Origin: Candidatus Omnitrophota bacterium
Lineage (GTDB): Bacteria; Omnitrophota; Gorgyraeia; Velamenicoccales; JABMQK01
Assembly (NCBI GenBank): GCA_028711115.1
Contig: JAQTSV010000001.1
Span: 198,032 to 262,031 of the forward strand
Direction of reading: 5' to 3'
Length of the DNA: 64,000 nt
Part shown: positions 44,652-62,407 of the stretch, piece after piece
Position numbering within the stretch: the stretch's first letter is position 1
Layout of the letters: each line of letters opens with the position of its first letter
The notes under the pieces: generated by a model
The model's database searches: none
Told to the model about the DNA's origin: nothing
The model's input: the letters and a program-made list of their open reading frames with translations, nothing else
Program-made: the position numbers and the translations under genes

Positions 44652-45728
44652 ATGGATACAAAAGATATTCTAAAATTAATGGTGGACAGAGATGCTTCGG
44701 ATTTATTCATAAAATTGGACAGACCGATAAGTATGCGTATTTATGGCAAGGTCACCACAATCGAAGATTTTGAGCCGCTGAATCTAAAGGAGATTAATAA
44801 AATCATCGACACTATATGCGATGAGAGAAACAAAGAAATTTTTAAAAATAATATGGATGTGGATTTTAGTTTTGACCAGGACGGATTAGGCCGTTTCAGG
44901 GTAAGTTTATTTTTGCAGCGCGGCGTCCCTTCCATAGTTATGCGCCGCATAAAAAAACAGGTGGGCAATTTTTCGGATTTAAATCTACCCAGCGATGTGC
45001 TCAGCAAGTTGACACAGGAGGTGCGGGGTATAGTTTTATTAACCGGTCCTGCAGGGAACGGAAAATCCACTACCATAGCCAGTATGATTGAATATATGAA
45101 TGAGAATCATCACCGCCATATAATCACAGTGGAAGACCCCATTGAATTTATTTTTCAGGATAAAAAGAGCGTGATTAATCAAAGAGAGCTGGGTTTGGAT
45201 GTCAGGTCTTATCCTATAGCCTTAAGGCAGATTACGCTGCAGAGCCCGGACGTGATATTCATCGGTACGATAAGAGATTTACCGACGATGTCAGCGGCGC
45301 TTATCGCAGCGGAAATGGGAATTCTGGTCTTGAGTACAATCCATACCAATAATAGCGCCCAGACCGTGGAAAGAATAGTAAATTTCTTCCCGCCGTATCA
45401 ACATAACGAAATAAGGATGCAGCTTTCCTTTTTATTAAAAGGCGTGGTTTCTTTAAGGTTATTGCCGCGGCTTGATAATAACGGCAGAATTCCCGCCTGT
45501 GAAGTGATGACCCTTACGCCTACGATCAGCCGTCTGATTCGCGACAATAATCTGCGCGATATTCCCAAATATCTGGAAGAAGGCGATATGTTCGGCATGC
45601 AGAGTTTTAAACAGAGTCTTTGCCGGTTAGTGCAGGAAAAGAAAGTAAGCAGGGAAGATGCCCTGACATTTTCCGACAGCAGAGAAGAATTGGAATTGGA
45701 ATTAAAAGGTATAAAGCGCTTGGTATAA
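44652..45728 (+). CDS. pilT: type IV pilus retraction ATPase PilT
   Basis: Carries LLTGPAGNGKSTT, ITVEDPIEF and STIHTNNSAQTVERI. 358 aa. Confidence 0.85.
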   Translation: MDTKDILKLMVDRDASDLFIKLDRPISMRIYGKVTTIEDFEPLNLKEINKIIDTICDERNKEIFKNNMDVDFSFDQDGLGRFRVSLFLQRGVPSIVMRRIKKQVGNFSDLNLPSDVLSKLTQEVRGIVLLTGPAGNGKSTTIASMIEYMNENHHRHIITVEDPIEFIFQDKKSVINQRELGLDVRSYPIALRQITLQSPDVIFIGTIRDLPTMSAALIAAEMGILVLSTIHTNNSAQTVERIVNFFPPYQHNEIRMQLSFLLKGVVSLRLLPRLDNNGRIPACEVMTLTPTISRLIRDNNLRDIPKYLEEGDMFGMQSFKQSLCRLVQEKKVSREDALTFSDSREELELELKGIKRLV

Positions 45729-45731
45729 AAA

Positions 45732-46841
45732 ATGCAGGAAGAACTCAGAGACAAACTGACAGAAATTGAGAAAAGACTCCGGCAGCTGAGTATTTATCTT
45801 GATATCCCCGTAAAACAAGACAAGATAAGGCAGCTGGAAACCATTATGTCTAATCCCGGCTTTTGGCAGGACCAGCAGACATCAAAAAAAGTCCTCAGGG
45901 AATTAAAAAGCTTAAAGTCAATCGTGGAATTATGGAGTGGTTATAACAAGAAGATTAGCGAAATGAAAGAATTGCTTGAGCTTATCAAAGACGAAGAAGA
46001 ATTACTTAGGAATATGTCCGATGAATTAAATAAATTGTCAGTCAATATCGCAGAACTGGAATTCCAGACACTATTGAGTGGCGAATTTGACCATAACGAC
46101 GCGATACTGAGTATAAATTCCGGAGCCGGAGGCACAGAATCTTGCGACTGGGCGAGCATGCTGCTTCGAATGTATACGCGCTGGGCGGAGAAGCACGGTT
46201 ACGAAGTAAAAGAAATGGATATTCTCGCCGGAGAAGAGGCCGGGATAAAAAATGTCACCATTTCTATTAAAGGGGCTTGCGCTTACGGTTATTTAAAGGC
46301 AGAGAGCGGTGTGCACAGATTAGTGCGCATTTCTCCTTTTGATGCCAATAAGAGAAGGCACACGTCTTTTGCCTCCGTGGATGTTATTGCGCAGATCCAG
46401 GACGATGTAAATATTTTAATAAGGCCGGAAGAAATCCGGGTTGATACTTATCGCGCCTCGGGAAAAGGCGGCCAGCACGTTAATATGACAGATTCGGCAG
46501 TAAGGGTAACGCATATCGAGACGGGAATTGTGGTGCAGTGCCAAAATGAGCGTTCCCAGTATCAAAATAAAGAAGTCTGCATGAATGTTCTCAAGGCAAA
46601 ATTATACGAACTAAGAAGAAGAGAGCAAGAAGCAAAAGTTTCCAAAGAGTACGCCCAGAAACAGAAGATAGAATGGGGTTCTCAGATTCGTTCTTATGTT
46701 ATGCATCCCTATAATATGGTAAAGGACCACCGCACAGAATACGAGACAGGCAATGTGCAGGCAGTGATGGACGGCGATATTGACGACTTTATCCACGCCT
46801 ATTTAAAAATGAAGACACTAGAAAAGGCAAAAAATGGTTAA
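45732..46841 (+). CDS. prfB: peptide chain release factor 2 (uninterrupted, no +1 frameshift site)
   Basis: Carries RISPFD (SPF) and GKGGQHVN (GGQ). The N-terminal LSIYLDIPV is encoded as CTT GAT, not CTT TGA C. Confidence 0.9.
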
Positions 46842-49680
46842 TTTTATAATAAAGAAAATTTTAGGTACCCAGAACGAACGCGAGCTGAATAAATTATCCA
46901 AGAAGGTTCAGGAGATAAATGCGCTTGAGCCTAAAATATCCCAGCTTTCCGACGTCCAGCTGCGTCAGAAGACGATAGAATTTAAGGAAAAGGTTTCTAA
47001 ATTTCTGGATTCGGAAAAATTCTCGGAAATAGAAGATATAAATCAGCGAAAGAAAATTTTACAGTCGGCGCTGGCTGAGGTTTTAGCCGAGGCGTTTGCC
47101 GTGGTGCGCGAGGCAGGCAAACGCACCGTGGGTATGCGCCACTTTGACGTGCAGTTAATCGGCGGCATGGCGCTTCACGAAGGAAAAATTGCCGAGATGG
47201 CTACCGGCGAAGGAAAGACTCTGGTGGCAACTCTGGCTGCTTATTTAAATGCTCTTAGCGGTAAAGGTGTACACATAGTTACGGTTAATGATTATTTGGC
47301 AAAACGTGACAGAGAATGGATGGGCCCGATTTATGAATTTTTAGGTATATCCGTGGGGGTTATTCAGAATGATATGCCGCCGCATCTGCGCAAACAGGAA
47401 TATAGCTGCGATATAGTCTACGGCACGAACAATGAATTCGGTTTCGATTATTTAAGAGACAATATGGTCATCTCCAAAGAAGAGATGGTGCAGAGGGAGC
47501 TTAATTTTGCCATTGTCGACGAAGTGGATTCAATTCTTATAGATGAGGCGCGCACGCCTTTAATCATTTCCGGGCCGGCGGAAGAATCGACCGATAAATA
47601 TTATATCATCAACCGCTTAGTGCCAAAATTAAAAAGAAGAAAGATTCTGGAAAAAGACGAAATAGAGGCAAAATATAAAGGAGAGGATCTTTCCAAAGGT
47701 TTTGATGCCATTGTCGATGAAAAGAACCATACGGTAAGTCTTACCGAAGAAGGCGTGGCTAAGTGCGAATCGCTTCTAGGCATAAGCAACCTCTACGATG
47801 ATATTTCTACGGAATGGGTGCATCATATTATCCAGGCAATAAGAGCGCACGATCTTTACGAGAAAGATGTGGACTATGTCGTAAAAGAAGGAAAAGTCCT
47901 TATCGTTGACGAATTCACCGGAAGATTAATGCCGGGGCGCCGCTGGTCCGACGGGCTGCACCAGGCAGTGGAGTCAAAAGAGAACATAAAGATTGAGAGA
48001 GAAAACCAGACATTAGCCACTATTACGCTGCAGAATTATTTTCGTATGTACAATAAACTCTCCGGAATGACCGGCACAGCATTCACCGAGGCAAATGAAT
48101 TCAAGGCAATATACGGTTTGGATGTTTTAGTCATTCCCACCAACAAGCATCTAATCAGGACAAATCATCCCGATGCGATTTATAAAAGCGAAGAAGAGAA
48201 ATTTGACGCGGTGGCAAATGAAATCGTCGAGCTTTTCAATAAGGGAAGGCCGGTGCTCGTAGGCACCATATCTATCGAGAAATCTGAACGCCTCAGCAGT
48301 ATGTTAAAGAAGAGAGGAATTCCGCACAATGTTTTAAACGCAAAGTACCACGAAATGGAAGCCCACATTGTGGCTCAGGCCGGAAGGTATAAGGCCGTAA
48401 CTATTGCCACAAACATGGCCGGCCGAGGCACAGATATTTTATTGGGCGGCAACCCGGAATTTATGGCAAGGAATATAGTTAAGGCCAAGGGATTGGACCT
48501 GGATTCTCCTGAAGGAAAAACAGAATTGGAAAAAGAATTGAAGACATTAAAGGCGCAGACGCAAAAGGAACACAATCAGGTTGTGGAATTAGACGGATTG
48601 CATGTAATCGGCACGGAGAGGCACGAGGCCCGCCGCATCGATAATCAGCTGCGCGGCCGTTCAGGCAGGCAGGGCGACCCCGGCTCGTCGAGGTTCTACA
48701 TTTCCTTGGGAGACGATTTGATGCGGCTGTTTGGCTCAGACAGGCTTATAGGCATTATGGATAAATTAGGTATGGAAAAAGGCCAGGTTATAGAACATCC
48801 CTGGATTTCCAGGTCTATAGAAATGGCGCAGAAAAGAGTTGAGGCATATAATTTTGAGATAAGAAAACAGCTTTTAGAATACGATAATGTAATGAATACG
48901 CAAAGGGAGATAATCTATTCCCAGCGGCGGATGGTTTTGGAAAATTCTGATGTCCGGGAAGACATAATGGATATGGTAAACGATGTCTTCGACCAGAATA
49001 TCGAGTTATTTATCCAGAAGAATCTTAATCCGGACAACTGGGATTTGGTGGGTTTGGAGAATTGGCTGCGCGCCGAATATGGCTCAAAAGTAAAAATCGA
49101 CCCAGACAAAATTAGCAATATGGATTACCAACAGGCAAGAGAATATCTGTCAGGCGAAGTTATGCGTATTTATCAGGACAAAGAAAATAAGATTGGCCCT
49201 GAACAGATGCGCCATCTGGAGAGGATGATTACGCTGCAGATTGTGGATACGCGCTGGAAAGAACATCTCTATGCCATGGATTCTTTGAAAGAAGGCATCG
49301 GCCTGCGCGCATATGGGCAAAAAGATCCGCTGATAGAATATAAAAATGAAGGATATATATTATTCCAGCAGCTCGTGGAGAGTATTAAAAAAGAAGTGGT
49401 TGAATTTTTGTTTAGAATTCAGGCTGTTGAGGAAAAAGGATTCAAGTCGGTATTTAAATCTCTGCCCGTGGAACTTGTGCACCAGGAATTTTCAGGGCTT
49501 TCAAAAGCAAAAAACGCTCCTTTAGAAAGACAACCTTTAGATCGTCCGGATTCTGCTACGCAGACAGAGGCCAAGAGAGATAATACTTCCACCGTCAAAA
49601 GAGATCAGCCCAAGGTAGGCAGAAATGATCCCTGTCCTTGCGGCAGCGGGAAAAAATATAAAAAATGCTGTGGTAAATAA
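46834..49680 (+). CDS. secA: preprotein translocase ATPase SecA
   Basis: Carries [30 protein letters not shown] and the C-terminal [14 protein letters not shown]. Confidence 0.95.
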
Positions 49681-49694
49681 ATAAGATCATCCGT

Positions 49695-51227
49695 ATGCCT
49701 GTGCGATTAACCAGCCTAAAAACGCTACTTTATTGTCTGTTAAGCCCAATCCTTCTGTGGCTTGCTTTCCCTGAATTAAATCTGGAATATTTTGCCTGGT
49801 TTAGTTTTGTGCCTTTGTTATTCATTATTAGAAATAAGAGCGGAACAAAGGCTTTCTGGCTTTCCTATTTTAGCGGTTTTATATTTTTCATATTGACGCT
49901 TTACTGGCTGGTCCATGTTACTTTGATAGGATTAATTATTCTCTGCCTGTATCTCGCTTTTTATTTTGCTTTTTTTGGTTATTTTTTCGTGTGTTTCCGG
50001 AAGAAATTTTCTCGATTAAACATTTTCCTGGTTTTATTTCTGTCCTCGCTGTGGGTTATTTTGGAATATATCCGCAGCCAGGTTCTTACGGGTTTTCCCT
50101 GGGCGCTGTTAGGCTACAGCCAATACCTTAATATCTACATTATCCAATTGGTCGATATAACCGGAGGCCTTGGTTTGTCTTTTCTGGTTATGTTTGTAAA
50201 TTTATGCGTATTGGAGATAATAGAGTTATTGTCGCAGAGAAAATTTAAATTAGCGGCGAAGATTATCTCAAACGTATTACTGATATTTTTGCTGATTTAT
50301 GGTTATGGTTTCTATTCGTTAAACAAGTATTCTAAGCAGGAGAAAACAACTCTTGGTGTTTCTTTAATCCAGGGAAATATTCCCCAGGAAAATAAATGGC
50401 AGAGCAATTTTAAAACCAGTATAAAAGAAGTTTATTTTGATTTAAGCTTCAGGGCGCTGAAAGAAAATCCGGATATAATTATTTGGCCGGAGACAGCGTA
50501 TCCGGATTATATTGTTTCTTCAGATAAACAGACACTGGGTTTGCTTAGTAAAATTGTCAGAGATACAAAATGCCCTCTTTTATTCGGAGCCATATACCAA
50601 AAACAGGATAATTATTTTAATAGCGCAGTTTTAATAACCGATGATTCCACGCCCGTCGAGGTTTATAACAAAATCCATTTAGTGCCATTTGGCGAATACC
50701 TGCCTTTGAGAAAATATATTCTTTCTTTGGAAAATTTTGTTCCCATTGCAGATTTTAATGCCGGCAGCGAATTTGTAATTTTTAAGGTAAAAAATAAACA
50801 AAATAAAAACTTTTACTTTGGCGTATTGATTTGTTTCGAGGATACTATAGCGGAATTGTCCAGAATTTTTAGATTGAGAGGCGCGGATTTCCTTGTAAAT
50901 ATTACTAATGACGCCTGGTTTAAAAAATCTTCCAGCCCTTACCAGCATCTGCAGGCCTCTGTATTCAGGGCTGTAGAGAATAGAATCTGTGTTCTGCGCG
51001 CGGCTAATACGGGAGTAAGCTGTGCAATCGATAAGTGCGGCAGAATAATCAAACGGGTAAAAGACATCCAGGGCAGGGATATTTTCGTAAGAGGATTTAT
51101 AAAAACAGAAGTTACAAAACAGGGTATTCTGAGTTTCTATAGTTTATTTGGCGATATATTTGTTTCGGTATGCATTTTATATACGCTTTTATTTGTCATA
51201 TACTACATTAAGAAAAAGTTTGCCTAA
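49695..51227 (+). CDS. lnt: apolipoprotein N-acyltransferase
   Basis: N-terminal TM bundle plus a CN-hydrolase domain (IIIWPETAYP, VLICFED). Confidence 0.85.
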   Translation: MPVRLTSLKTLLYCLLSPILLWLAFPELNLEYFAWFSFVPLLFIIRNKSGTKAFWLSYFSGFIFFILTLYWLVHVTLIGLIILCLYLAFYFAFFGYFFVCFRKKFSRLNIFLVLFLSSLWVILEYIRSQVLTGFPWALLGYSQYLNIYIIQLVDITGGLGLSFLVMFVNLCVLEIIELLSQRKFKLAAKIISNVLLIFLLIYGYGFYSLNKYSKQEKTTLGVSLIQGNIPQENKWQSNFKTSIKEVYFDLSFRALKENPDIIIWPETAYPDYIVSSDKQTLGLLSKIVRDTKCPLLFGAIYQKQDNYFNSAVLITDDSTPVEVYNKIHLVPFGEYLPLRKYILSLENFVPIADFNAGSEFVIFKVKNKQNKNFYFGVLICFEDTIAELSRIFRLRGADFLVNITNDAWFKKSSSPYQHLQASVFRAVENRICVLRAANTGVSCAIDKCGRIIKRVKDIQGRDIFVRGFIKTEVTKQGILSFYSLFGDIFVSVCILYTLLFVIYYIKKKFA

Positions 51228-51263: not shown

Positions 51264-51902
51264 ATGATAAATTTTATGTGCCGTATCCATAAAAAGGAAA
51301 AAAGAGATTTTTTGAAAGGATTTACGCTTGTGGAGATATTGATTGCTGTCTCCATATTGTTGATAGTCACGGGCATGGTCTCGACTATTTTTATAAGCAC
51401 ATTGAATTACTGGAAGAGGGGCTATGCGCTCAGCCGTCGGCAACAGTCTGCCAGATTAGTCTTTAGCCGTATGACGGAAAATATTTCCAGCCTGTTTCTT
51501 TCCTCGTCCAGAAACATTTATTGTTTTGGTTCGAAAGATAAATTTTATTTTATGTCTGCTTCAGTAAAAGGCACAGAAGGAGATTTGGCAGAAATGGGTT
51601 ATGAGTTCAACCAAGCTGATGGCAAATTATTCTTTTATTATCAGGAAAAATCAGATTATGATTTTAGTACATACGATTATAAGGATATAATAGCGGTAGA
51701 TATCCTGGAATTAAATTTTAGTTATTTGGATAGTAGCGGTAATTGGCTGGATAGCTGGGACAGCCGCGTCGGCGGACAAGAACAGGGTTTATCCCCACAG
51801 GCGATCAAGGTTTATTTCAGCGTAGAAAATCCGGATTTTCCCGACAAAAAAGAGGCTTTTGAGACAGTAGTGGAGCTGCCCATAAGGACGAAGTACCGTT
51901 AA
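51264..51902 (+). CDS. pseudopilin with prepilin N-terminal methylation domain (GspJ/PulJ-like)
   Basis: KGFTLVEILIAVSILLIVTGMV. 212 aa. Confidence 0.6.
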   Translation: MINFMCRIHKKEKRDFLKGFTLVEILIAVSILLIVTGMVSTIFISTLNYWKRGYALSRRQQSARLVFSRMTENISSLFLSSSRNIYCFGSKDKFYFMSASVKGTEGDLAEMGYEFNQADGKLFFYYQEKSDYDFSTYDYKDIIAVDILELNFSYLDSSGNWLDSWDSRVGGQEQGLSPQAIKVYFSVENPDFPDKKEAFETVVELPIRTKYR

Positions 51903-51941
51903 GCGCTACATAAATAAGCTGAAAATAAAAAAGGAGAAATT

Positions 51942-53000
51942 ATGGCTAATTTTTCTTTAGTAAAAAGAGTATCCATGAAACAATTGCTGCATTTTACACG
52001 GCAGCTGTCTATTCTTATTTCCGCAGGTACTCCTTTGATAAAAGCCTTAAATACTATCTATGAACAGATGCCGGAAGGTTATTTTAAGGAAATAATATTC
52101 GGAATTATTAAGAATGTGGAAGAAGGAAGTCCTTTATCGACGGCGTTAAGCGAAAATCCCGATATTTTTTCTAATTTATTTGTGAACATGGTTAAGGCCG
52201 GTGAGGTAGGAGGCTTATTGCCAGCGGTTTTAAAAAGGATGGATCATTTCCTGAATCATACATATAGATTACACCAGAGGATTAAATTAGCCACGATGTA
52301 TCCGGCTTTTGTCTTGATAATCGCCATAGTCATTTTAACAGTTTTGACTGCCTTTGTGGTTCCGAGTTTTGCTAAAATTTTTAATGATTTAGGCGGACAA
52401 CTTCCGCCCACAACCAGGGTGTTAATAAGTATAAGCACAGCCTTTAACCACTTCTGGTATTTAATACCGCTTTTAATTTTCCTTTTCGTTATTTTATTTA
52501 AAATAGCTGTGCGTAAGCCAGCGACAAAAAGTTTTCTGGATAATTTAAAACTAAAGTTACCGGTTATAGGCACCCTTACATTAAATCTTGAGATTGCGCG
52601 CTTCAGCCGGCTTTTAGGAACGCTGCTTGTATCGGGAGTTCCTATACTCAATGCCTTAAAACTCACAGGTGATGCCAGCGAGAATTCTTTATTTTCTGAT
52701 GCCATAGAGGCCGTGCTTAAAAATATAGAAAAAGGATCCAATATTTACAGTTCTATGGAAGAGCATGATATATTTCCTAAAATATTAACCAGAATGGTCA
52801 ATGTAGGCGAAGAGTCAGGCCAGCTCGATAAAATTCTTTTGCAGATAGCCGACGAATACGAGGAAGAGGCAGAAGACACGCTTACAAGTCTCACCGCGCT
52901 TTTAGAGCCACTGCTGATTGTGACTATGGGTATTATTGTAGGTTTTGTCGTGATTGCTTTATTCTTCCCCATATTTACGATGGGCAGTTTAGTAAAATAG
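51942..53000 (+). CDS. type II secretion system F / PilC family platform protein
   Basis: Two repeats of the T2SF pattern (LHFTRQLSILISAGTPLIKAL; ARFSRLLGTLLVSGVPILNAL) plus three TM helices. Confidence 0.85.
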   Translation: MANFSLVKRVSMKQLLHFTRQLSILISAGTPLIKALNTIYEQMPEGYFKEIIFGIIKNVEEGSPLSTALSENPDIFSNLFVNMVKAGEVGGLLPAVLKRMDHFLNHTYRLHQRIKLATMYPAFVLIIAIVILTVLTAFVVPSFAKIFNDLGGQLPPTTRVLISISTAFNHFWYLIPLLIFLFVILFKIAVRKPATKSFLDNLKLKLPVIGTLTLNLEIARFSRLLGTLLVSGVPILNALKLTGDASENSLFSDAIEAVLKNIEKGSNIYSSMEEHDIFPKILTRMVNVGEESGQLDKILLQIADEYEEEAEDTLTSLTALLEPLLIVTMGIIVGFVVIALFFPIFTMGSLVK

Positions 53001-53096
53001 TTTTGTTTATTAAGATTGAAAATTCACTTAACTTATTTTACCATGAGGGTTTCATATTCTGATAAAGTAGTCATTTAGTGCAAGGAAATAGTATCT

Positions 53097-53456
53097 ATGA
53101 GAAAAAGCAATCTTAAGGGTTTTACGCTGCTGGAAGTTTTAATCGCCTTGTTAATTTTAGGCATAGGAATGTCTTTTATCTTCAGTATCTTTCCTTTGGG
53201 AATCCGTATGTCCAAAGAAGTGCAGATTTTAAGCAGCATTTCTTTCTTCGCCCAGAAAAAGATTGAAGAATTGAAGACGATGAATGAAACTCCCGGCAAT
53301 TCCAGCGGCCAGGAGAATAATTTTAATTGGACAGTCCAAATTGAAGACTATACCACAGAAAATAATATTTTGTTAAAGAAATTACAGCTAGATACAGAAT
53401 GGTCAGAAGGCGCAAGGATGAGAAAGAAATCTTTCGTCACCTATTTTAAACATTAA
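53097..53456 (+). CDS. pseudopilin (GspI-like)
   Basis: KGFTLLEVLIALLILGIGMSFIF. 119 aa. Confidence 0.65.
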   Translation: MRKSNLKGFTLLEVLIALLILGIGMSFIFSIFPLGIRMSKEVQILSSISFFAQKKIEELKTMNETPGNSSGQENNFNWTVQIEDYTTENNILLKKLQLDTEWSEGARMRKKSFVTYFKH

Positions 53457-53459
53457 GAC

Positions 53460-56400
53460 ATGAAGATACGCAATAGAAAAAACGGTCAGGCCATTATTTT
53501 GGTCTTATCTATTTTAGGAATTGTTTCTTTGATAGGTTTTAGTTTTTTATCTATGAGCCAAATGGAGCTGAAAGGTGCCACTTCTTATCTTGCCAGGCTC
53601 CAGACCAAATATCTGGCTGAAGCTGGGATAAATTATGCCAAAGAAGTGCTTACTTTTGATAAGGAGGCGAATAATGTAGATTCTTATGATGAGCTTTGGA
53701 ACATAACATTTGCCGGAACGGATGTTGATTTAAGCGGTGATGGCTCTCCTGATTCAAAGTGGTTTTATGTTAAGGACAGCCAAGGGAACGATATCGGCAG
53801 ATACGCTATCTTGGTTAGAGACGAAGCAGGCAAGGTTAATGTAAATGGCGATGAAGCTGTCTTAAGTAAGTTTTTTAGCAGCAGCGGATTCGGCGGTGAA
53901 ACTACAGTCAGAAAGATTATTGACTATCGTTATGGCGAAGACAAGAAACCAGGCGCAGCAAACACCGACGACAACGGCAATAACTCTAGTCTTGAGAGAG
54001 ATCTTTTGGATAATGATGGCGATGGGTCAGTTGATGAAAACAATGAAGGCATTGATGAATCAGAGGAATTTAATGTAGAAAATCCCAAAGGCGACGATCG
54101 CCCGTTTGTGGTAATAGATGAATTAAAGAAACTTAAGTTTTTATCCAGTGAAGACTTTAAGAACACAGAGAAATTTTTAACGGTTTCTTCAAAAGATCAA
54201 GAAAAAAATACTGAAGGCGGTATGCGCCAGAATATAAATTATATGAAGGCAGAAGATATTTTAAAAATAATGCTGGAAAGAGGCGTTAGTGAACCATGGC
54301 AGAAGTCTGTGAATATCGTGGATAGTCTGGATATAAATTTTGCGCGTGCCACAATCTATAAACATTACAATCTGTTGCAGACCAGGCCGGGTCAGGTTAT
54401 AGGCAGTTGGGCATGGAATAATAGTTATTATCAATGCGATATACCCGGTAGCCAGGGTAGTTGGTCGTGGAATAATTTGAAATTTCCCGACGGAGAATAC
54501 TACTGCTATATCTATGGTTTGGAAGATGAACCCATAGGTGATGTAGAAATCCAGGGAATAGTTCAGCAGCATATGCACAGCGGAGACGCCTTTATTAAAA
54601 GTGAAGGCAGAAAAGTTACAATACAGGGTGGCAGTTTCAGCTTATCCATACAGAACAACGAAGAATTCGGCAAGATGTGTTATTTTGCGCGCATCGAATT
54701 AATACCAGAGGATATCAACAGCGGCTCTGCACTTTTATCGAAAGAAATACACGGTGTAGAGCCGATACGTATAAATGAATTAATGGTTGCGCCCAAAATA
54801 GCAAGGACCACCACTTCTTCTAATGTGCCCGGCGGTGCATGGGTGTGGCACGGGTCATTATTTATAAACTCCGATTCGGAATCAGGCACGGTAGGCGAAG
54901 GCACCTGGGTTTTTGTAAATATTCCCAACGGCTATTACTATTTACGGTTATTTGGTCAGGAAGGTAAATTTATTGGCGATGTGGAAGTCAACGGAAGAAC
55001 ACAAGTATCCATGCGAGACGGAGATTATTTTACAGAGACAAAAAGTGTCCAGGTAACTTCCAATCAGCTCGTTATAAGAATTCAGAATAATCTTAAAGAT
55101 AAGACATGTTATTTCAAGAGTATTGTTTTATCCCAACAACCAGATACAGAATATGTGGAACTGGTGAATATTAGTAAAAATACGGTCGATCTTAGCGGTT
55201 GGTCATTGGAAACCACAGGTCAAGAGGCAGCAGCGGCTTTTATCCCGCAAGGCACGACCATAGCCCCTTACGACTATTTAGTTTTATGTGTGGACAAAGA
55301 CGATCGCGCCGACGGCATAGATTCTAACAATATTTCTTTTCTTAACGCATGGGAAGTACAGAAATCTGTGCAATTGGATTTCTTTAAAGTTTTGGATAAG
55401 GATTTTGATTTTTTAAAAGACGTGCCTGTCCAGGGCGAGAATTATGTTATGTTAAAAGATGTCAAAGGTTCCATAGTAGATAAAGCAGAATATTTGAGTT
55501 CACAGGTGGTAGATTATTCTTCGCTGGAACGGGGCGATCCCACCGAGCAGAGTGATAGTAATGATGATTCAGAATTTGATAGGTGGTTTTTAACCAGTGA
55601 TTTAAGCGGAGGCACGCCCGGTCGGGTAAATAATAATGCAAGTTATATTATAGATGGATTTCATAACCACAACATTAATGAAGTTTGGGTAAGAAATTCT
55701 CCTGCTTTAAATATTTCTGATTTGGCATATGCGCCCAAAGGTTATACCTGGAAGAGATTTGAATTTCTGGAGGGAAAAGAATTGGAATTAAAATTATCGG
55801 ATCTTAGCCTGTTAGTCGATTCTCTGACGGTAACCGGACTTTTTCTTTCTCCGCAGGAACACAGAGTGTCTGGCTGGTCACAGACCTATGGCGAAAAAGA
55901 AGGTTTCTACAGCAATACTTTTGGGGAAGAAGGCATCTGGCGCTGGCAGAATTTAGAAAATGGCGAATACTTTTTGACGATCAGTGGTGAGTTCGAAGAA
56001 GCTGTAACGGTAAGTTATAAAAAAGCAGACGGTTCGTGGCAGATGCTGGCTCAGGGTATTATTCCTAACGAAGAAGGATTGGTTTATTGCGGCATAATCG
56101 GCATCGGAGAAAATAGTTTAGACGGTACAGCAGATAATACTCTAGAGATTCAATTGGCAAATGCTTCCCAGACGAACACGGCACATTTTTATTATTTAAG
56201 ACTGGATCCGCTGCAGTATATCATAGGCCGGATTAATATAAATACCGCACCACAGCAAGTTTTATTGTCATTGCCAAGTATTGATGAGCAGGCAGCATCG
56301 GTTATAATAAATAATAGGCCATTCGGCAATAAGGATTTGCTCGGCAGAGGAATCGGAGATTTATTTCTTACAGATATATTTGGTAGCTCTGCAGACAAAA

Positions 56401-56537
56401 TTGACAAATTAGGTTCTCTCTCTAATTACATTACTGTGCACTCTAATATTTTTGAGATAATTGCCAGGGCACAAGTTTTGGAACAGGAGAGAGTTGTCGC
56501 CAGTCAGGATATCAAGACAATCATCGAAAGAGAATAG
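53460..56537 (+). CDS. giant GspK/PilX-like minor pseudopilin with inserted lamin-tail domain, acidic Ca-binding-like stretch and three repeated modules
   Basis: The N-terminus NGQAIILVLSILGIVSLIGFSFL...YLAEAGINYAKEVL and the C-terminus ININTAPQQVLLSLPSIDEQAASVIINNRPF follow the GspK pattern. IRINELMVAP ... EYVELVNISKNTVDLSGWSL follow the LTD pattern. DDNGNNSSLERDLLDNDGDGSVDENNEGIDE is Asp-rich. Confidence 0.65.
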   Translation: MKIRNRKNGQAIILVLSILGIVSLIGFSFLSMSQMELKGATSYLARLQTKYLAEAGINYAKEVLTFDKEANNVDSYDELWNITFAGTDVDLSGDGSPDSKWFYVKDSQGNDIGRYAILVRDEAGKVNVNGDEAVLSKFFSSSGFGGETTVRKIIDYRYGEDKKPGAANTDDNGNNSSLERDLLDNDGDGSVDENNEGIDESEEFNVENPKGDDRPFVVIDELKKLKFLSSEDFKNTEKFLTVSSKDQEKNTEGGMRQNINYMKAEDILKIMLERGVSEPWQKSVNIVDSLDINFARATIYKHYNLLQTRPGQVIGSWAWNNSYYQCDIPGSQGSWSWNNLKFPDGEYYCYIYGLEDEPIGDVEIQGIVQQHMHSGDAFIKSEGRKVTIQGGSFSLSIQNNEEFGKMCYFARIELIPEDINSGSALLSKEIHGVEPIRINELMVAPKIARTTTSSNVPGGAWVWHGSLFINSDSESGTVGEGTWVFVNIPNGYYYLRLFGQEGKFIGDVEVNGRTQVSMRDGDYFTETKSVQVTSNQLVIRIQNNLKDKTCYFKSIVLSQQPDTEYVELVNISKNTVDLSGWSLETTGQEAAAAFIPQGTTIAPYDYLVLCVDKDDRADGIDSNNISFLNAWEVQKSVQLDFFKVLDKDFDFLKDVPVQGENYVMLKDVKGSIVDKAEYLSSQVVDYSSLERGDPTEQSDSNDDSEFDRWFLTSDLSGGTPGRVNNNASYIIDGFHNHNINEVWVRNSPALNISDLAYAPKGYTWKRFEFLEGKELELKLSDLSLLVDSLTVTGLFLSPQEHRVSGWSQTYGEKEGFYSNTFGEEGIWRWQNLENGEYFLTISGEFEEAVTVSYKKADGSWQMLAQGIIPNEEGLVYCGIIGIGENSLDGTADNTLEIQLANASQTNTAHFYYLRLDPLQYIIGRININTAPQQVLLSLPSIDEQAASVIINNRPFGNKDLLGRGIGDLFLTDIFGSSADKIDKLGSLSNYITVHSNIFEIIARAQVLEQERVVASQDIKTIIERE

Positions 56538-56747
56538 AACCTTCCCAGCTTTATCTAATCCGGAACATAAACTTCAACGCCAACCAATTGTTTAATTAAA
56601 TTTTTCTAGAATTATTCCAAAAACTCTGTACAAAAGGTTTATTTTGAAACAAAAATAACACTGTTTTTATGCTTTTAATCAGAACCAAAACTCTTTATAT
56701 ACCAAATATTTAGGTGAAATATACCGGTGGTTATTACATTATAAAAT

Positions 56748-56833: not shown

Positions 56834-57028
56834 TGCTTAGGTGTTTTCAGGAAGTCTATTGTATAGATTTTTATTGACAAATATATACAAATACTATAAA
56901 ATTATATCAAATTTAGTTAAAGCTCATTTATTCTCAGGTTAATTCAATTTCTTCAATTTAATTAGGTTAATAGGATTCACTTAAATACCAATAATAATAT
57001 ATAAGTAATAAATGGTTGGAGGTGCAAA

Positions 57029-57220
57029 ATGATGGAAATGACAAACGAATATTTCTCTGCTAATGAAGCAGCACAGGCCTTGGGTATTTCCAAACAGACA
57101 CTGTTGAGGTATGAGAAGAAAAAGATTTTTCCTAAAGCCAAAAGGAGCCCCATCAATAAGCGGAGGGAATATACAGCCAGTGACATTGAGCTGTTTAGAA
57201 AAATTATGGGAAGAAGATAA
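57029..57220 (+). CDS. small MerR/excisionase-type HTH protein
   Basis: YFSANEAAQALGISKQTLLRYEKKKIFPKAKRSPINKRREYTASDIELF. Confidence 0.6.
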   Translation: MMEMTNEYFSANEAAQALGISKQTLLRYEKKKIFPKAKRSPINKRREYTASDIELFRKIMGRR

Positions 57221-57240
57221 GGGTAAAAGGAGCACTTTCT

Positions 57241-58857
57241 GTGCAAATCAATAATATAGTCGGACTAGATATAGGCGCAAAAAACATAAGGTTTGTAAAC
57301 CTCGCTTTAAGAGGTAGAGAGGTCGAACTCTTAAAGTTTGAAATTATAGAATTACCAGCCACCACCAACCAGTATGAAATCATAGATTTATTAAAACTCA
57401 TGTTCAGGAACCATCAATTAAAAACTGGCACACCTATTTGTTTGTCCGTATCAGCGGAGGAATCGTTCTTTAAAATAATTTCCGTTAAATTAAGAGGGAC
57501 AAAAAAATTCAAAGATATCGTTAAGGATGAATTAAGAAAGAATGTCGTCTTTTCTTTGGAGGATTGTCTTTGGGATTATTCTATACTCCGGAATAAACCC
57601 AAGGAGATGGTCAACGACGTTTTGTTGGTGGCATCAAGAAAAGAAACGGTTTTGGATAAAATAAAATTAATTGAGCAGGCCAATGGCTCGGTGTATCTGA
57701 TAAATCTGGATATTTTAGCCACATATAATTGTTTGAAATTCAATACAGCCCTTGCCAGCGGCAAGCTCTATGCGCTTTTAGATATTTTTTCGCAAAAGAC
57801 ACAGGTATTTATTTTTGACGATAAAGGAAGCTTCTGGATGAAGACTATACCTTTCGGTGGGAATAAATTCACAGAAGCCGTAGCTAAAAACATGAGTCTT
57901 TCTGTGAAAGAAGCCCAGGAATACATAAAGAGCATGTTACTTCAGGACAACTCAGCCTTAAAAAATGATGACATGGCCGGTCCTATCATGAAAGAAATTG
58001 CCGCAGAGGTGGACAAAACTTTCAATTACTACTATTTTCAGAGGACTGAGTCCGCAGCCAAAGAAACCCGCGCCTCTAAAATTGACGAGATATTCCTTAG
58101 CGGTGGCGGTTCGCTTTATCTGGGGCTGGATAAATTTTTGATGGATACATTAAAGATTCCTACCCGCTACCTTTATCCTTTGAATAAGATTTCGATAAAG
58201 AGCAAGGCAATTCTATCCAAAAAGAATATTTTAAATACTCAATCACCAGAACTTGCCACGGCGGTTGGCCTGGCCTTATGCGGCTTTAATATTTCTGAGA
58301 TAAAGATTAATCTGGCCAAGTCAACCAAGATAAGCGTCTTCAAAAAGATGAAGGTAATTCATATATATAATTTTCTTATCGCTTTGTGCGTGATCCTGTT
58401 GGTATTTTTGTTAACACAAAAAGTTGCCTTTGACAGAGAAAGCAAAGCCATAAACTCAAAATTAAAAGAAATGACGTTTATTTCCAAAGAGCAGATACCG
58501 CAGATAAACGACCTTACAGAAAAATACAAAATCATAGATTCCCGCATAGGTATTTTTAGGAATACCGTTAACAACAGAAATATAATCAGCCGTATTCTAT
58601 ATAAAATATCCGAAGTGATCTCTGATGATGTCTGGGTAACGAATTTTATGTTTAGTTTAGATTATCAAAGTAACGCAGGGGAATTAACCATCACGGGCAA
58701 CTCTAAAGACTACGCCGGAATAAATAAATTAATTTCCGGGCTGAAAGATACAGGTTACTTTAAATCCATAAAGCCGGTTTCCTCCAAGGTCAAGATCGAT
58801 GATGTGACAAAGCAGGAAATGGTTAATTTTATTATCAGGCTGGACATAGGAAAATAA
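57241..58857 (+). CDS. PilM-PilN fusion (actin-like pilus assembly ATPase fold plus TM/PilN-like C-terminus)
   Basis: VGLDIGAKNIRFV and LSGGGSLYLGLDKFL fit PilM. A TM (IYNFLIALCVILLVFLL) is followed by a periplasmic domain. GTG start with AGGAG 8 nt upstream. Confidence 0.7.
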   Translation: MQINNIVGLDIGAKNIRFVNLALRGREVELLKFEIIELPATTNQYEIIDLLKLMFRNHQLKTGTPICLSVSAEESFFKIISVKLRGTKKFKDIVKDELRKNVVFSLEDCLWDYSILRNKPKEMVNDVLLVASRKETVLDKIKLIEQANGSVYLINLDILATYNCLKFNTALASGKLYALLDIFSQKTQVFIFDDKGSFWMKTIPFGGNKFTEAVAKNMSLSVKEAQEYIKSMLLQDNSALKNDDMAGPIMKEIAAEVDKTFNYYYFQRTESAAKETRASKIDEIFLSGGGSLYLGLDKFLMDTLKIPTRYLYPLNKISIKSKAILSKKNILNTQSPELATAVGLALCGFNISEIKINLAKSTKISVFKKMKVIHIYNFLIALCVILLVFLLTQKVAFDRESKAINSKLKEMTFISKEQIPQINDLTEKYKIIDSRIGIFRNTVNNRNIISRILYKISEVISDDVWVTNFMFSLDYQSNAGELTITGNSKDYAGINKLISGLKDTGYFKSIKPVSSKVKIDDVTKQEMVNFIIRLDIGK

Positions 58858-58860
58858 TAA

Positions 58861-59940
58861 ATGCGTAAATATATTTTGATAATTTTAGTTTGTCTGGTAA
58901 TTATAGGTATTATTTTACGTATCCAGGGCAGAAGAACCATTGTTAATTTGAATAACGATTTTAAAAAACAGGAAGAACTGATCCGCAAATACCAAAATGA
59001 TACGGGTATAATCCCCGGCAGTGTGGCTATGGTAAAACTGAAAGAATCTATTTCTTCAAACGAAAAAGATTTCAGAAAAGTGCTGAGCCTGTTTGATACC
59101 GTGAAAAAAGATTTGCCCGCAGATGTCTCAGATAAAGGTATATATTTCTTTGAATCACTGCATACTTGTTTAAAAGAGCTGGAGAGGGAGGCCACAGCCA
59201 AAAAAATGATTTTGCCTCCGGTAGATTTTTCTGTAGACGTACCCCGGGAAGAAGATATTCCATATCTTTTAAAACAGATTGAAATGATACAAGACATTAT
59301 GGGAATAATATTGGATGCGGGAAAATGCGAAATAACCACCATACGCCCCAATCCCATTGACAAGACAAAAAAATTCCTTGATTTTGACAAGCTGGGTATC
59401 CAGATAATACTGAATATCGATTCCGATTCTTTAGCTAAGGTATTGTCAGATATGAACAGCCATGTGCCGCTTTATCTTATTGAGGAATTTTCTGCAAGTG
59501 TCATAGAGCAGAATAAACTAAAGGTCAGCCTCGTCGTCTCCAGGATCCTTACCGGCATATCAGTTGCAGATATAGGCGAATTTAAAAGTAAAGATAGTTT
59601 TGATTTAGATAGTCTTTACCCATTGGATTTGGATTTTAAATCATTCTCCAAGAGAAATCCGTTTTTTAGGAAACAACAGGAAGTTGCAAAAGACGCGGCT
59701 CTTGGTGGCTCTGCCGCAAAAGGAGCCAAAACTACTCCACAATTTACATATAAAGGCAATATGTTTATGGATAAAAAAACGATAGCAATCATAGAGGATA
59801 ATTGGCAGGGCAAGGCTTGTTTTGCCGCAGAAGGCGATGTTTGTTCAGGATATAAAGTTACAAAGATAGAAGGTAAAAGAGTTATTTTATCCAAAGATAA
59901 CCAGGAACTTATTTTACTAAAGGGAGCGAATAATGAATAG
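58861..59940 (+). CDS. PilO/PilP-like bitopic pilus alignment protein
   Basis: Has an N-terminal TM and a coiled-coil-like region. The C-terminal IAIIEDNWQGKACFAAEGDVCSGYKVTKIEGKRVILSK resembles PilP/GspC-type beta domains. Call based on position and pattern only. Confidence 0.4.
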   Translation: MRKYILIILVCLVIIGIILRIQGRRTIVNLNNDFKKQEELIRKYQNDTGIIPGSVAMVKLKESISSNEKDFRKVLSLFDTVKKDLPADVSDKGIYFFESLHTCLKELEREATAKKMILPPVDFSVDVPREEDIPYLLKQIEMIQDIMGIILDAGKCEITTIRPNPIDKTKKFLDFDKLGIQIILNIDSDSLAKVLSDMNSHVPLYLIEEFSASVIEQNKLKVSLVVSRILTGISVADIGEFKSKDSFDLDSLYPLDLDFKSFSKRNPFFRKQQEVAKDAALGGSAAKGAKTTPQFTYKGNMFMDKKTIAIIEDNWQGKACFAAEGDVCSGYKVTKIEGKRVILSKDNQELILLKGANNE

Positions 59941-62407
59941 AAAAATATCGATGGTAATGGTTATGGCAATTTTCGCTATTTTATTTTATTCAATTTATTT
60001 TACGAGTTATGCCTCGAGTGCAACCGGAACCAAGAGCGTGCTCAAGACAGCCATAGTTAATATGCATTGTGAGAGAGGCGTAAGACTATATAAGACAGGT
60101 AATTACGATAAGGCGATTGAGGAATTCATACGGGCGCTGGAGCTTGATCCTGGCAACGCAGGAGCCAAGAAATACCTTACGGCGTCAGTCAAGCAGAAAA
60201 ACAAAAAGATGATTGATCAGTTATATAAAGACGCAAGTATCTTTTTTCAAAAGAATGAATACGGTAAGGCCATAGAGGCCTATAAAAAGGTTTTGGAAAT
60301 TAAACCCAACGACAGTTACTCAATGTATAAAATAGAATCCTTAAACGCCGTTATCGAAAAAGAGGATAAGCTTAAGCAAAATGATCAGTATAAAGAATCG
60401 CAGCGCGCAAAAGAATTAGAAAAAGTAGCCAAGGAAAAGGCAGAAAAGGAACGCCTATTAAAACAGCAGGCAGAACAGATTGCTTCGGAGGTGGCGCGCA
60501 AAGAAAAAGCCAATCAGAAGGCAGAAATGCGCCAGATAAAAGAAAAGCAGATAAAAGAAATAGAGCAGATGATCAACGAGAAAATAGATGAAGGAAGCCA
60601 GGAAGAAGAGGCACCGGCTGAGGGTGCAGTTTCAGAAGGAAAATCTGTTTCTGCGCCAAAGGCCGGTCCAGCAGCTGCATCAGAATCTTCTCTGTCCAAG
60701 GAAGGAAGGGAGAGGTCGTATAAAATAAAATTGCTTTTTGAATTGGGCAAAAAGTATTATAATATGAGCCAGTACCGCAGAGCCATTGAAGCATTTCAGC
60801 AGGCGGTTGATTTGGAGGCCGGTTCTCCACTTATTTATACCGCGCAGGCAAAAGAATACATAGATAAGTCCAAAGATAAAATACGAGGTCAGATACGCCA
60901 GGATAAGGTCAGAGAGATAGAAGATATCGAGAACGAAATGATAAATAGAGTTATCGAGGCAGCGAAACTCCCCACCGAACCCATCTCCAGCACAATCACA
61001 AGAGATGTTATTGAGCCTACCATAGAAACTGTAGATATCCGCAAGAAAATGGTTTTACCTGTGGATATGGATTTTCAGGATGTTGATGTGGTTTATGTTT
61101 TGGATTATTTATCAGAAACCACCGGCGCAAATATTGTAATGTCCAGCGCCGTCACCAAAGGTAAACATACAGTAAGCGTAAAAATTAAAGACATGCCATT
61201 AGAAGAGGCCCTGAAGTATGTTTTAAAGAGTTCGGGCCTTACTTACCGTATTGATAAAAATGTGGTTTGGATAGCTACTCCCGAAGAGATGACTAATGAG
61301 CAGATGGAGACAAAAGTCTTTACGCTCAAAAAAGGCAAAGGCGCGTTTACCGAATTTAAATCAGCCACGACTGGCAGCGTAGGTTTGGGTTCCGCGGCAG
61401 ATGTGGATAAGGTAACCACAATTAAAGATATAATAGAAAAGGCCCTGACTTGGCCGTCGGGCGCAAAGATTGTGCTCGACGAAAGACTGGGTGCGCTGAT
61501 TGTTACCAATACGCCATATAATTTAGAGCTTGTGGAAAAAATCCTGGAGAAGATTGATGTTGAACCTATACAGGTTTTAATCGAGGCCCGTTTCTTAGAG
61601 ATAAGTGTCACCGACTTAAATGAATTAGGTATAGACTGGCAGATTAATTCTGCTCTTCCCATCGATAAAGCGCGCGGGGAAATGGTGCATGGTATAGCTG
61701 CAAATTCAGGAGTGAATTTTACCGATACTACCAGGCAGACAGAGGGTTTTAATTTTACTTATCAGGGTCTTTTGACAAAACCCCAATTCCAAGTTGTGCT
61801 GCATACTTTAGAAGAGTCGAAAAAAGTAAAAACGCTCTCTGCGCCACGCATCACTACTTTAGATAATCAGATGGCCACGATGAAAGTTGTTGACGAATGG
61901 ATATACCCCACGCGTTACGAGTTTCAGATTGTGCAGTTTGACTTAAACGGCGACGGAGATTTTGGCGACGCCAATGAAACATTATACAAAAATGTGCCTT
62001 CGGATTTTGTAAAGAGAGATGTGGGGATTTTATTGCGTGTAACTCCCAGCGTAGGGATGGATGATAATACCATTACGCTTACGCTCATCCCCGAGGTAAG
62101 CGATGGCACAGCAGGTTATTTTTCTTATACAGGAGATGTTAGCTTGCCGTTATTTACTTCCCGTAACCTCTCTACGTCCGTGGTGGTAAATAACGGTGAT
62201 ACCGTGGTTTTAGGGGGACTGATTAAAGAAACGCAGACAAAAGTCAGAACCAAAGTCCCTATTTTAGGAGACCTGCCGTGGGTGGGCGCAATTTTCAGAA
62301 AAGACACAGACAGTATTATGAGAAAAAATCTTTTAATATTTGTCACAGCCACGATTCTTTCCAGTAAAGGAGAAGGGGTTGCTTTAAATAAGACAGCGCC
62401 CAAATAA
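59933..62407 (+). CDS. secretin (PilQ/GspD family) with N-terminal TPR and Lys/Glu-rich coiled region
   Basis: Carries SAPRITTLDNQMATMKV, GDTVVLGGLI and VPILGDLPWVGAIFRKDT. N-terminal TPR units (YDKAIEEFIRALELDP, YGKAIEAYKKVLEIKP) are present. Confidence 0.85.
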   Translation: MNRKISMVMVMAIFAILFYSIYFTSYASSATGTKSVLKTAIVNMHCERGVRLYKTGNYDKAIEEFIRALELDPGNAGAKKYLTASVKQKNKKMIDQLYKDASIFFQKNEYGKAIEAYKKVLEIKPNDSYSMYKIESLNAVIEKEDKLKQNDQYKESQRAKELEKVAKEKAEKERLLKQQAEQIASEVARKEKANQKAEMRQIKEKQIKEIEQMINEKIDEGSQEEEAPAEGAVSEGKSVSAPKAGPAAASESSLSKEGRERSYKIKLLFELGKKYYNMSQYRRAIEAFQQAVDLEAGSPLIYTAQAKEYIDKSKDKIRGQIRQDKVREIEDIENEMINRVIEAAKLPTEPISSTITRDVIEPTIETVDIRKKMVLPVDMDFQDVDVVYVLDYLSETTGANIVMSSAVTKGKHTVSVKIKDMPLEEALKYVLKSSGLTYRIDKNVVWIATPEEMTNEQMETKVFTLKKGKGAFTEFKSATTGSVGLGSAADVDKVTTIKDIIEKALTWPSGAKIVLDERLGALIVTNTPYNLELVEKILEKIDVEPIQVLIEARFLEISVTDLNELGIDWQINSALPIDKARGEMVHGIAANSGVNFTDTTRQTEGFNFTYQGLLTKPQFQVVLHTLEESKKVKTLSAPRITTLDNQMATMKVVDEWIYPTRYEFQIVQFDLNGDGDFGDANETLYKNVPSDFVKRDVGILLRVTPSVGMDDNTITLTLIPEVSDGTAGYFSYTGDVSLPLFTSRNLSTSVVVNNGDTVVLGGLIKETQTKVRTKVPILGDLPWVGAIFRKDTDSIMRKNLLIFVTATILSSKGEGVALNKTAPK

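Follow-up and report, generated by a model that had tools for sequence, protein, structure and literature searches.

How a small pilus-capping protein can come to be a chain of 1025 amino acids, and what such a chain would be for, is the question raised by one gene of Candidatus Omnitrophota bacterium. The Omnitrophota are abundant, uncultured, ultra-small bacteria that are thought to live on other cells. To our knowledge, no 'symbiosis' trait is found in them more consistently than type IV (T4) pili, and we know of no report that names the gripping element of the pilus. The gene lies in a stretch of 64,000 nucleotides, referred to here as the window (contig JAQTSV010000001.1 of assembly GCA_028711115.1, positions 198,032 to 262,031 of the forward strand), and its bare annotation as GspK hides two thirds of the protein. 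We consider the product to be probably the apical minor pilin, at the GspK/PilK position, of a retractile T4 pilus, on which it would display a Ca-dependent, lectin-like adhesin array. Being conserved and apparently placed at the tip, the protein is a concrete candidate for the grip of the Omnitrophota pilus. We divide it as follows, in window coordinates and amino-acid (aa) positions.

53460..56537, + strand: the whole gene, encoding 1025 aa, a minor (pseudo)pilin of the GspK/PilK family in which a beta-sandwich insert is nested
53460..53849, + strand: aa 1-130, prepilin-like leader, alpha1 helix and the first two pilin strands; aa 90-95 form a DxDxDG-like motif
53850..54347, + strand: aa 131-296, first half of the alpha-domain (SAM-like/first helix-hairpin-helix, HhH1), with helices 132-161 and 219-290, enclosing the Asp-rich loop
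54348..54719, + strand: module M1, aa 297-420 (core 315-416), an 11-strand jelly roll
54720..54824, + strand: aa 421-455, the displaced first strand or strands of the lamin-tail domain (LTD), VEPIRINELMVAP, modelled as strands 426-431, 436-442 and 446-450
54825..55139, + strand: module M2, aa 456-560 (core 459-560), in the first loop of the LTD
55140..55529, + strand: aa 561-690, main body of the LTD (PDTEYVELVN...), Pfam PF00932
55530..55835, + strand: aa 691-792, linker assigned to no family; largely coil, with DSSP helices at 752-757 and 772-788
55836..56213, + strand: module M3, aa 793-918, a divergent third jelly-roll copy
56214..56537, + strand: aa 919-1025, second half of the alpha-domain (GRININTAP HhH2/SAM-like), followed by the last two strands of the pilin sheet

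The 1025-aa version of a small pilus-capping protein is real and widely conserved. According to the list of open reading frames (ORFs) and the translation, the frame runs uninterrupted for 1025 codons from an ATG at 53460 to 56537 on the + strand. A length unusual for GspK was the sole prompt for suspecting an artefact, whether a chimeric assembly, an ORF fusion or a wrong ORF call, and the sequence-only reading had named a chimera as a possible refutation of its own proposal. The identical protein, labelled GspK, is found in three GenBank records of metagenome-assembled genomes (MAGs; MDD5005094.1, MDD5351758.1 and MDD5550969.1), and the identical sequence also lies on a 1.57-Mb contig. Scanning one genome per species retrieved about 70 collinear full-length homologues with 28-64% identity, three of them in single-cell genomes and the others in Omnitrophota MAGs, some of the MAGs being third-party-annotation records auto-labelled 'Planctomycetia'; a protein search returned about 46 full-length relatives with 29-66% identity, all of them with the LTD. 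Because collinear homologues occur in independent assemblies and identical copies in several MAGs, the chimera is refuted, and the chance of any such artefact is negligible. The GC content stays between 0.38 and 0.43 across the ORF without a break in composition against the flanks, and the predicted structure passes confidently over all junctions as a single chain.

Both ends of the protein support the GspK-like termini that had been read from the sequence. At the N-terminus, the NCBIfam profile T2SS_GspK (NF037980; T2SS, type II secretion system) matches aa 8-89 over profile positions 2-85 (E 2e-15). The leader reads MKIRNRKNG/QAIILVLSILGIV, the slash standing before the first mature residue, and the mature start G/QAIIL places Leu at position +5, as does the family consensus G/xALIL. 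Glu at +5 is thus absent, and Pfam N_methyl gave no score on the 1025-aa protein; the two neighbouring pseudopilins of 119 and 212 aa start with G/FTLxE and have Glu at +5. PilK/GspK homologues lack Glu at +5 without exception, which marks the apical subunit (PMC13533445). At the other end, Pfam HHH_3 and T2SSK match aa 924-957, and T2SSK (PF03934) aligns with the ININTAP region at aa 925-955 (E 1e-4). Profile searches of the Protein Data Bank (PDB) matched this end to GspK (5vtm_X) in addition to the HhH motifs of EEPD1 and ComEA, and HhH2 is nearer to the ComEA/EEPD1 motifs (E 6.6e-8/2e-4) than to the solved GspK (E 0.025). In a PDB profile search, the first HhH of ComEA fell on the C-terminal ININTA region and the second on positions 230-258 of the family profile, which suggests that an array of about 620 aa parts the two halves of the alpha-domain. 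When the inserts were deleted in silico, 10 of 10 cores matched T2SS_GspK, the best with E 6e-31. The first alpha-domain half is harder to recognise: PF21687, which covers it, found no match in the 1025-aa protein and weak ones in two relatives (P0057 and P0096), and PDB sequence searches with aa 121-297 gave nothing past the N-terminal pilin helix, or no match whatever. With Foldseek, our model aligned to the XcpK chain of 9a1f_T, a model of the XcpGHIJK pseudopilus, over 293 columns with 16% identity, a probability of 1.0 and a target TM-score (TMt) of 0.46. The predicted scaffold comprises about 400 aa, with the N-terminal membrane/filament helix (alpha1), a four-stranded pilin sheet and an alpha-domain of two HhH/SAM-like halves.

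The AlphaFold2 (AF2) model, built from the family alignment, is a single chain with a mean local confidence (pLDDT) of 87.9 and a predicted TM-score (pTM) of 0.83. It consists of a helix at 4-70, strands at 101-105 and 111-121, a helical region at 132-290 broken by the Asp loop at aa 170-200, M1 at 298-416, the first LTD strands at 426-450, M2 at 462-558, the LTD body at 565-677, a linker at about 690-790, M3 at 794-916, the helical HhH region at 932-988, and C-terminal strands that DSSP assigned to 997-1008 and 1011-1023 with pLDDT of about 90. The sequence-only reading had put some 700 extra residues between the two termini; the large insert stands, and its size and site are now corrected to about 620 aa (aa ~297-918) within the GspK alpha-domain, in the order M1, LTD carrying M2 in its first loop, linker and M3. 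As modelled, the insertion is nested four deep, with the alpha-domain in the pilin sheet, the beta-array in the alpha-domain, and a module in the LTD of that array. Conservation in the family alignment is even, with 0.39-0.50 for the insert and 0.49-0.50 for the pilin core. An insert as conserved as the pilin core favours a function with a conserved ligand, and this evenness fits a conserved ligand rather than a surface shaped by an arms race. A search of viral folds in BFVD returned just non-specific multi-beta-sandwich tail and receptor-binding proteins at TM-scores of about 0.1, from which we draw nothing.

Three paralogous copies of one module of about 110-125 aa had been recognised from the letters, and statistics now bear out the repeat. 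M1 and M2 gave a Smith-Waterman z of 27 against shuffles, and M3 as a single sequence gave z values of 5.6-7. Comparing sub-blocks of the 40-sequence family alignment by hhalign, we obtained a probability of 100% for M1-M2 (E 1.6e-39), 98.2% for M1-M3 (E 4e-14) and 98.1% for M2-M3 (E 9e-14) over the full module length; as a control, the linker block (aa 690-800) did not match the modules. BLASTP of the 1025-aa protein against itself returned the identity hit alone and no internal repeat. Profile hidden Markov models of the modules located M1, M2 and M3 at equivalent positions in 42 of the 42 full-length homologues scanned, the conserved positions being W/W/W/YY/GDV/QNN/CYF.

The fold of these modules was sought with Foldseek, as the sequence-only reading had advised for modules and LTD alike, and the matches were carbohydrate-binding-module (CBM) jelly rolls of the CBM6/35/36 type for the former and lamin tails for the latter. 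The full model aligned with the CBM6 structures 2cdo/2cdp at TMt 0.63-0.70, a root-mean-square deviation of 3.0-3.9 Å and a probability of 1.0. M1 alone, predicted by AF2 with pLDDT 90.8, retrieved CBM36, CBM6, CBM35, CBM86, domain III of Cry toxins and APC10 at TM-scores of about 0.45-0.55, the best E being 4e-3. In a Pfam scan of 22 module sequences to E <= 5, we found no CBM and no other family, only scattered weak beta-sandwich matches. By the predicted structures, the modules belong to the galactose-binding-like jelly rolls by fold, not by family. Filing them as CBM6 was considered and rejected because the test for sequence-family membership came out negative.

A profile of M1 and M2 searched against 1.84 billion representative proteins gave 99 hits, 35 of them at E <= 1e-10, and these strong hits lay nearly all within the pilin family of the 1025-aa protein, whose members have about 820-1110 aa. 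The other hits were partial and concerned repeats of the CarboxypepD_reg type in giant proteins. In P0082 (3747 aa), P0085, P0093 and others, profile positions ~16-95 match CarboxypepD_reg/transthyretin-like repeats of proteins of 2-5 thousand residues. The sequence matches hint at a remote link of the central strands of the module to this repeat class.

The LTD is interrupted by a module, as had been claimed for IRINELMVAP and the body downstream. Pfam LTD (PF00932) matches aa 560-678 with 43.2 bits, above the gathering score of 34.3, and covers profile positions 19-107. When aa 447-558 were deleted in silico, the match improved from 45.4 to 55.7 bits, with its coverage widening from 17-107 to 7-107; the gain of about 10 bits and the coverage down to position 7 identify IRINELMVAP as the likely displaced first strand of the LTD. 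Foldseek matched the domain to the tails of lamin B1/A (3jt0 and 3gef) with a probability of 1.0 and TMt 0.55-0.59. The peptides [IV]RINE[IVL]M[VI]xP and [QE]PD[AGT]EY[IV]EL, which no other stretch in the family exceeds in conservation, are adjacent in ordinary LTDs, whereas about 120 residues separate them here. In a distant relative (P0063) the LTD is unsplit and matches profile positions 10-104. A 2585-aa Hydrogenedentota relative has its LTD split likewise by an insert of about 270 aa; because the split is shared with this protein, we regard the arrangement, on the sequences compared, as ancient.

The Ca-binding-like, Asp-rich stretch at aa 167-200 is present as described, within a loop spanning aa 163-215. 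Its DxDxDG-type motif, DNDGDG at aa 184-189, is kept in 39 of 40 homologues, and a second such motif, at aa 90-95, in 35 of 40. At a mean pairwise identity of 57%, no block of the family is better conserved than this loop, and AF2 places it with low confidence (pLDDT 53-58). High conservation and poor placement together fit a metal-binding loop that was modelled without its ion.

Beyond the collinear homologues, the GspK scaffold appears, from sequence comparison, to serve Omnitrophota and Ratteibacteria generally as a carrier whose inserts vary, because a group of proteins of 676-1419 aa from both lineages (P0047-P0065) shares the GspK-like ends and differs in the inserts. The likeness of these proteins to ours is confined to the GspK-like ends; they have other inserts without the M modules, and in some of them the LTD is weak or unsplit. 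Giant GspK-like relatives were found in two further loci, one Hydrogenedentota-labelled (L072, 2206..9963, 2585 aa) and one Nitrospirales-labelled (L077, 3..6542, at least 2179 aa). Their layout comprises a GspK N-terminus, many DNDGDG loops, IRINEIMVRP, a module, an LTD with EPDHEWVELVN, an M3-like module, an RLNINT HhH and C-terminal strands. Tentatively, giant GspK-type proteins might form a cross-phylum 'all-in-one' tip class (members of about 1,000 aa from Omnitrophota, and of 2,200-2,600 aa from the Hydrogenedentota- and Nitrospirales-labelled MAGs), in which the LTD with its inserted jelly roll would serve ultra-small episymbionts or predators as the recogniser of host or prey, with PilY1 replaced; we hold this wider idea to be possible rather than probable.

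Where the protein would act depends on the machine encoded around it. The genes of the window that bear on this are the following.

51264..51902, + strand: 212-aa pseudopilin (G/FTLVE), GspJ/PilW-type candidate; N_methyl, weak Verru_Chthon cassette C and ComGF matches
51942..53000, + strand: GspF/PilC platform protein; Pfam T2SSF, E 1e-61
53097..53456, + strand: 119-aa pseudopilin (G/FTLLE), GspI/PilV-type candidate; N_methyl, weak PilV, GspI, XpsI, ComGE and ComGF matches
57241..58857, + strand: PilM-PilN fusion, 538 aa (Pfam)
58861..59940, + strand: PilO/GspC-like protein, 359 aa (Pfam)
59933..62407, + strand: secretin with N-terminal tetratricopeptide (TPR) repeats and an STN domain (Pfam)
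44652..45728, + strand: PilT-type retraction ATPase; TIGR01420 pilT_fam, 385 bits against a cut-off of 319
30203..30613 and 30895..31284, - strand: T4-type pilin genes in tandem (G/FTLxELI), probable major pilins with ComP_DUS and Pilin_GH matches
34702..35052, + strand: comEA, 116 aa, HHH_3, just 3' of leuS and overlapping comEC
35033..36547, + strand: comEC, 504 aa, overlapping comEA

In 33 related loci, the gene for the 119-aa pseudopilin stands directly 5' of the large one. On the 3' side of the large gene, pilMN follows in 31 related loci and the gene of the 359-aa protein in 30, and the secretin was detected in 7. The orthologue of the 212-aa protein in the locus L001 has a weak T2SSJ match; PDB sequence searches with the 212-aa and 119-aa pseudopilins reached at most the N-terminal pilin helix. 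About 20 loci from further afield have gspF, the 119-aa-like gene, the 212-aa-like gene and K in succession, which amounts to I-J-K. Within the gene's own lineage the GspJ-like gene lies 5' of gspF (51264..53456), and in the more distant lineages of L039-L059 the GspI-like and GspK-like genes flank it. L001, whose homologue is 59% identical, keeps the order pilT-prfB-secA-lnt-J-F-I-K-HTH-pilMN-...-secretin, where HTH stands for a small helix-turn-helix gene; in our window, too, prfB, secA and lnt are interleaved between pilT and the pseudopilin genes (44652..51227, + strand). No PilY1 gene was found at the pilus locus. The C-terminal strand is provided in cis by GspK, and in type IVa pili (T4aP) in trans by PilY1; in systems without a tip adhesin, PilK homologues often have large insertions (PMC13533445). 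The lack of Glu at +5, the C-terminal strands in cis and the adjacent GspI-like and GspJ-like genes together would place the 1025-aa protein at the tip.

Several smaller features accompany the locus. A 63-aa ORF with a MerR/excisionase-type HTH (57029..57220, + strand) stands directly 5' of pilMN behind a 490-bp AT-rich gap (GC ~26-31%), and a near-consensus promoter-like site, TTGACA-17-TAAAAT, precedes it at 56874..56902. A homologous small HTH gene before pilMN in 26 related loci makes this a candidate for a conserved regulator of the pilus operon. Scanned with Rfam, the AT-rich stretch between the genes (56400-57300) gave no credible match. In the lineage with 38-40% identity (L018, 9329..11140; an equivalent gap exists in L008-L038), an additional membrane-anchored Big_13/immunoglobulin-like (Ig-like) protein of 603 aa is encoded between the GspK-like gene and HTH-pilMN. 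The TPR part of the secretin may, from its domain content, be a fused pilotin-like TPR. One of the tandem pilins matches Pfam ComP_DUS with 31.4 bits, above the gathering threshold, and the other weakly matches Pilin_GH. The tandem genes adjoin a phage-type integrase (28003..29082) and a protein with an AEP-TOTE primase domain (24597..27269), neighbours that suggest a mobile or defence island. A PilZ-domain protein is encoded at 37165..37650 (+ strand), about 600 bp 3' of comEC.

Taken together, the domain anatomy, the homologies, the conservation and the gene context shown above suggest the following mechanism; the position at the tip, the binding of Ca2+, the kind of ligand and a part for retraction in it are inferred. 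The 1025-aa protein would assemble with the 119-aa GspI-like and the 212-aa GspJ-like pseudopilins into a priming tip complex, which would be pushed through the secretin atop the pilus fibre. The array, stabilised by Ca2+ at the DxDxDG loops, would then be presented as a lectin-like adhesin, its target being a conserved glycan or other polymer at the surface of host or prey cells or in the matrix, and PilT-driven retraction could draw the tiny cell towards what it has bound. Nearly all Omnitrophota have T4aP, for which a role in host attachment has been proposed (PMC10066038), and a tip adhesin is in line with this.

A pilus is not the only machine that could carry such a protein. In a true T2SS, it would be the tip of a periplasmic endopilus, and its array would recognise exoprotein cargo or gate or plug the secretin. 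Several observations weigh against the tip adhesin and partly for this alternative. The C-terminal strand in cis and the GspK-type alpha-domain would, on structural comparison, represent the T2SS configuration of GspK (PMC13533445), the NCBI name is GspK, a gspF-like gene lies between the pseudopilin genes, and a bulk of about 110 kDa might fail to pass the secretin. In a lineage with 38-40% identity, moreover, we found no minor-pilin genes beside the GspK-like gene; phosphoglycerate-mutase-like and membrane-protein genes were observed on its 5' side. The membership in the GspK family is itself distant: NF037980 scores 57 bits on the native protein and 61 bits on the insert-free one, with an equivalog cut-off of 130 bits, and PF03934 gives 23.0 bits, slightly below its cut-off of 24.2. 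With 61 bits against 130 in NF037980, the protein is, as judged by the profiles, a homologue of proteobacterial GspK and no equivalog of it. Finally, the likeness to CBMs lies at the level of the fold, and sugar binding does not follow from the models, since a TM-score of about 0.5 for M1, a best E of 4e-3 and the lack of a Pfam CBM mean that the fold alone is no proof of it. The machine nevertheless argues for a pilus: the retraction ATPase scores above the curated PilT-family cut-off, the alignment complex is of the PilM-PilN type without GspL, GspM or a clear GspC, GspH was not detected, and separate T4-type pilin genes are present in the window. Omnitrophota are reported to encode T4a pili and V. 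archaeovorus to express them (PMC10066038), and tip proteins of the size of PilY1 are displayed on T4 pili (PMC13533445). We consider a T2SS endopilus unlikely, though it deserves more weight than any other alternative.

If the protein does cap a retractile pilus, its target might still be DNA. The sequence-only reading had left the choice open between a DNA-binding and a prey-binding adhesin, and had found comEA/comEC and pilT in the window, where they indeed lie (34702..36547 and 44652..45728). As the DNA receptor of a competence pilus, the protein would take up DNA with its LTD and HhH array, and PilT retraction would hand it to ComEA/ComEC. This has the presence of comEA and comEC on its side, together with an HhH2 that resembles the motifs of ComEA/EEPD1 more than the solved GspK, the occurrence of LTDs in extracellular nucleases such as ExeM (PMC6085458), and the example of Thermus ComZ, a minor pilin with an insert for which DNA binding has been proposed (PMC8179133, PMC13533445). 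The charge points the other way. With a net charge of -61 for the whole protein and of -40 to -101 across the family, every member is strongly acidic; the LTD (-14), M3 (-12) and the Asp loop (-13) contribute to it, all insert domains are acidic (-1 to -14 here, family means -4.1 to -12.7), and HhH2 alone is near neutral. The comEA/comEC pair is 17 kb away behind MurJ, UvrC, pilT, prfB, secA and lnt and is not co-conserved in related loci, the modules have a carbohydrate-binding-type fold, and it is a separate pilin of the window that matches ComP_DUS. The link between bacterial LTDs and DNA, which the sequence-only reading had invoked, is weakened as well: ExeM, carrying the sole bacterial LTD tested, degrades extracellular DNA without it, and no DNA-binding role of the domain was demonstrated (PMC6085458). 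The acidity, the CBM-type fold, the distance to comEA/comEC and the lack of a DNA role for the LTD lower the DNA reading to a quite improbable one, below even the endopilus, and favour the lectin-like adhesin; the prey or cell-surface half of the earlier proposal is plausible and the better supported of the two.

If the wider 'all-in-one' idea is true, the tip protein decides the attachment target of an Omnitrophota cell and replaces PilY1. The tip position would give bacterial LTDs a clear place in a topology, namely where a fibre that can retract ends. The ectodomain of about 620 aa is well folded in the prediction and could serve as a test piece.

Modular and insert-bearing tip pilins are established (PMC8179133, PMC13533445, PMC12075869), and the present protein can be set against several known systems. 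With GspK/XcpX of the T2SS and PilK/PilX of T4aP (3CI0, 5VTM and the model 9a1f), it has in common the lack of Glu5, a predicted alpha-domain with HhH/SAM-like motifs in the pilin sheet, the C-terminal strand in cis and the I-/J-like neighbours, but it is three times longer and has an array of about 620 aa in the alpha-domain and an extra Asp-rich DxDxDG loop of about 50 aa. Unlike GspK/XcpX, it goes with a machine of the PilT/PilMN type and not of the GspE/L/M type, and it scores below the curated equivalog cut-off. The large pilin-headed proteins of about 1300 aa in the Verru_Chthon cassettes A/C (TIGR02600 and TIGR02599) of Verrucomicrobia and Chthoniobacter, which belong to the Planctomycetes-Verrucomicrobia-Chlamydiae group, also have a small pseudopilin partner, but our 1025-aa and 212-aa proteins match these profiles over the first ~55-60 residues alone, with 26-31 bits against a cut-off of 332. 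The modules M1, M2 and M3 share their fold with CBM6, CBM35 and CBM36, and the setting, acidic and presumably Ca-rich and extracellular, is alike, whereas membership of those sequence families is lacking. Like the LTDs of ExeM/NucH nucleases and CotH-type secreted proteins, the LTD here is Ig-like and would be extracellular; it differs from them in having its first strand cut off by a module of about 110 aa, in the conservation of this split across phyla, and in standing on a pilin scaffold. An association of LTDs with oligosaccharide-binding-type domains is mentioned in PMC6085458, which cites Mans et al. 2004 for it.

A similar design is found in insert-bearing PilK homologues that stand in for PilY1 and in which one chain unites the priming pilin and the tip domain, as in Thermus ComZ, CpaL/TadG of Caulobacter and the PilK homologue of the V. 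cholerae competence pilus (PMC13533445). In these proteins, the insert follows the pilin sheet and precedes the C-terminal donor strand, and its fold is a different one, a beta-solenoid in ComZ (PMC13533445), whereas here it lies inside the GspK alpha-domain and consists of CBM-like jelly rolls and an LTD. PilB and PilC of S. sanguinis have a ligand-binding module grafted on a pilin (vWA and a ConA-like lectin module, respectively; PMC8179133), as here, yet their modules are appended C-terminally to pilins scored by the N-methyl motif, and ours are nested within GspK. A pilin-LTD architecture (IPR012902-IPR001322) is listed in Dataset S1 of PMC8179133 for six proteins and one longer variant, none of them characterised, and in the literature searched we found no description of a GspK family with an LTD split by a jelly roll and nested in the alpha-domain, or of its lineage-restricted module. 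Carrying an LTD that is not specific to T4 pili together with CBM-like domains, all nested on a GspK scaffold, the protein has what defines a modular pilin in the sense of Raynaud et al. 2021, and it extends the modular-pilin idea to GspK itself.

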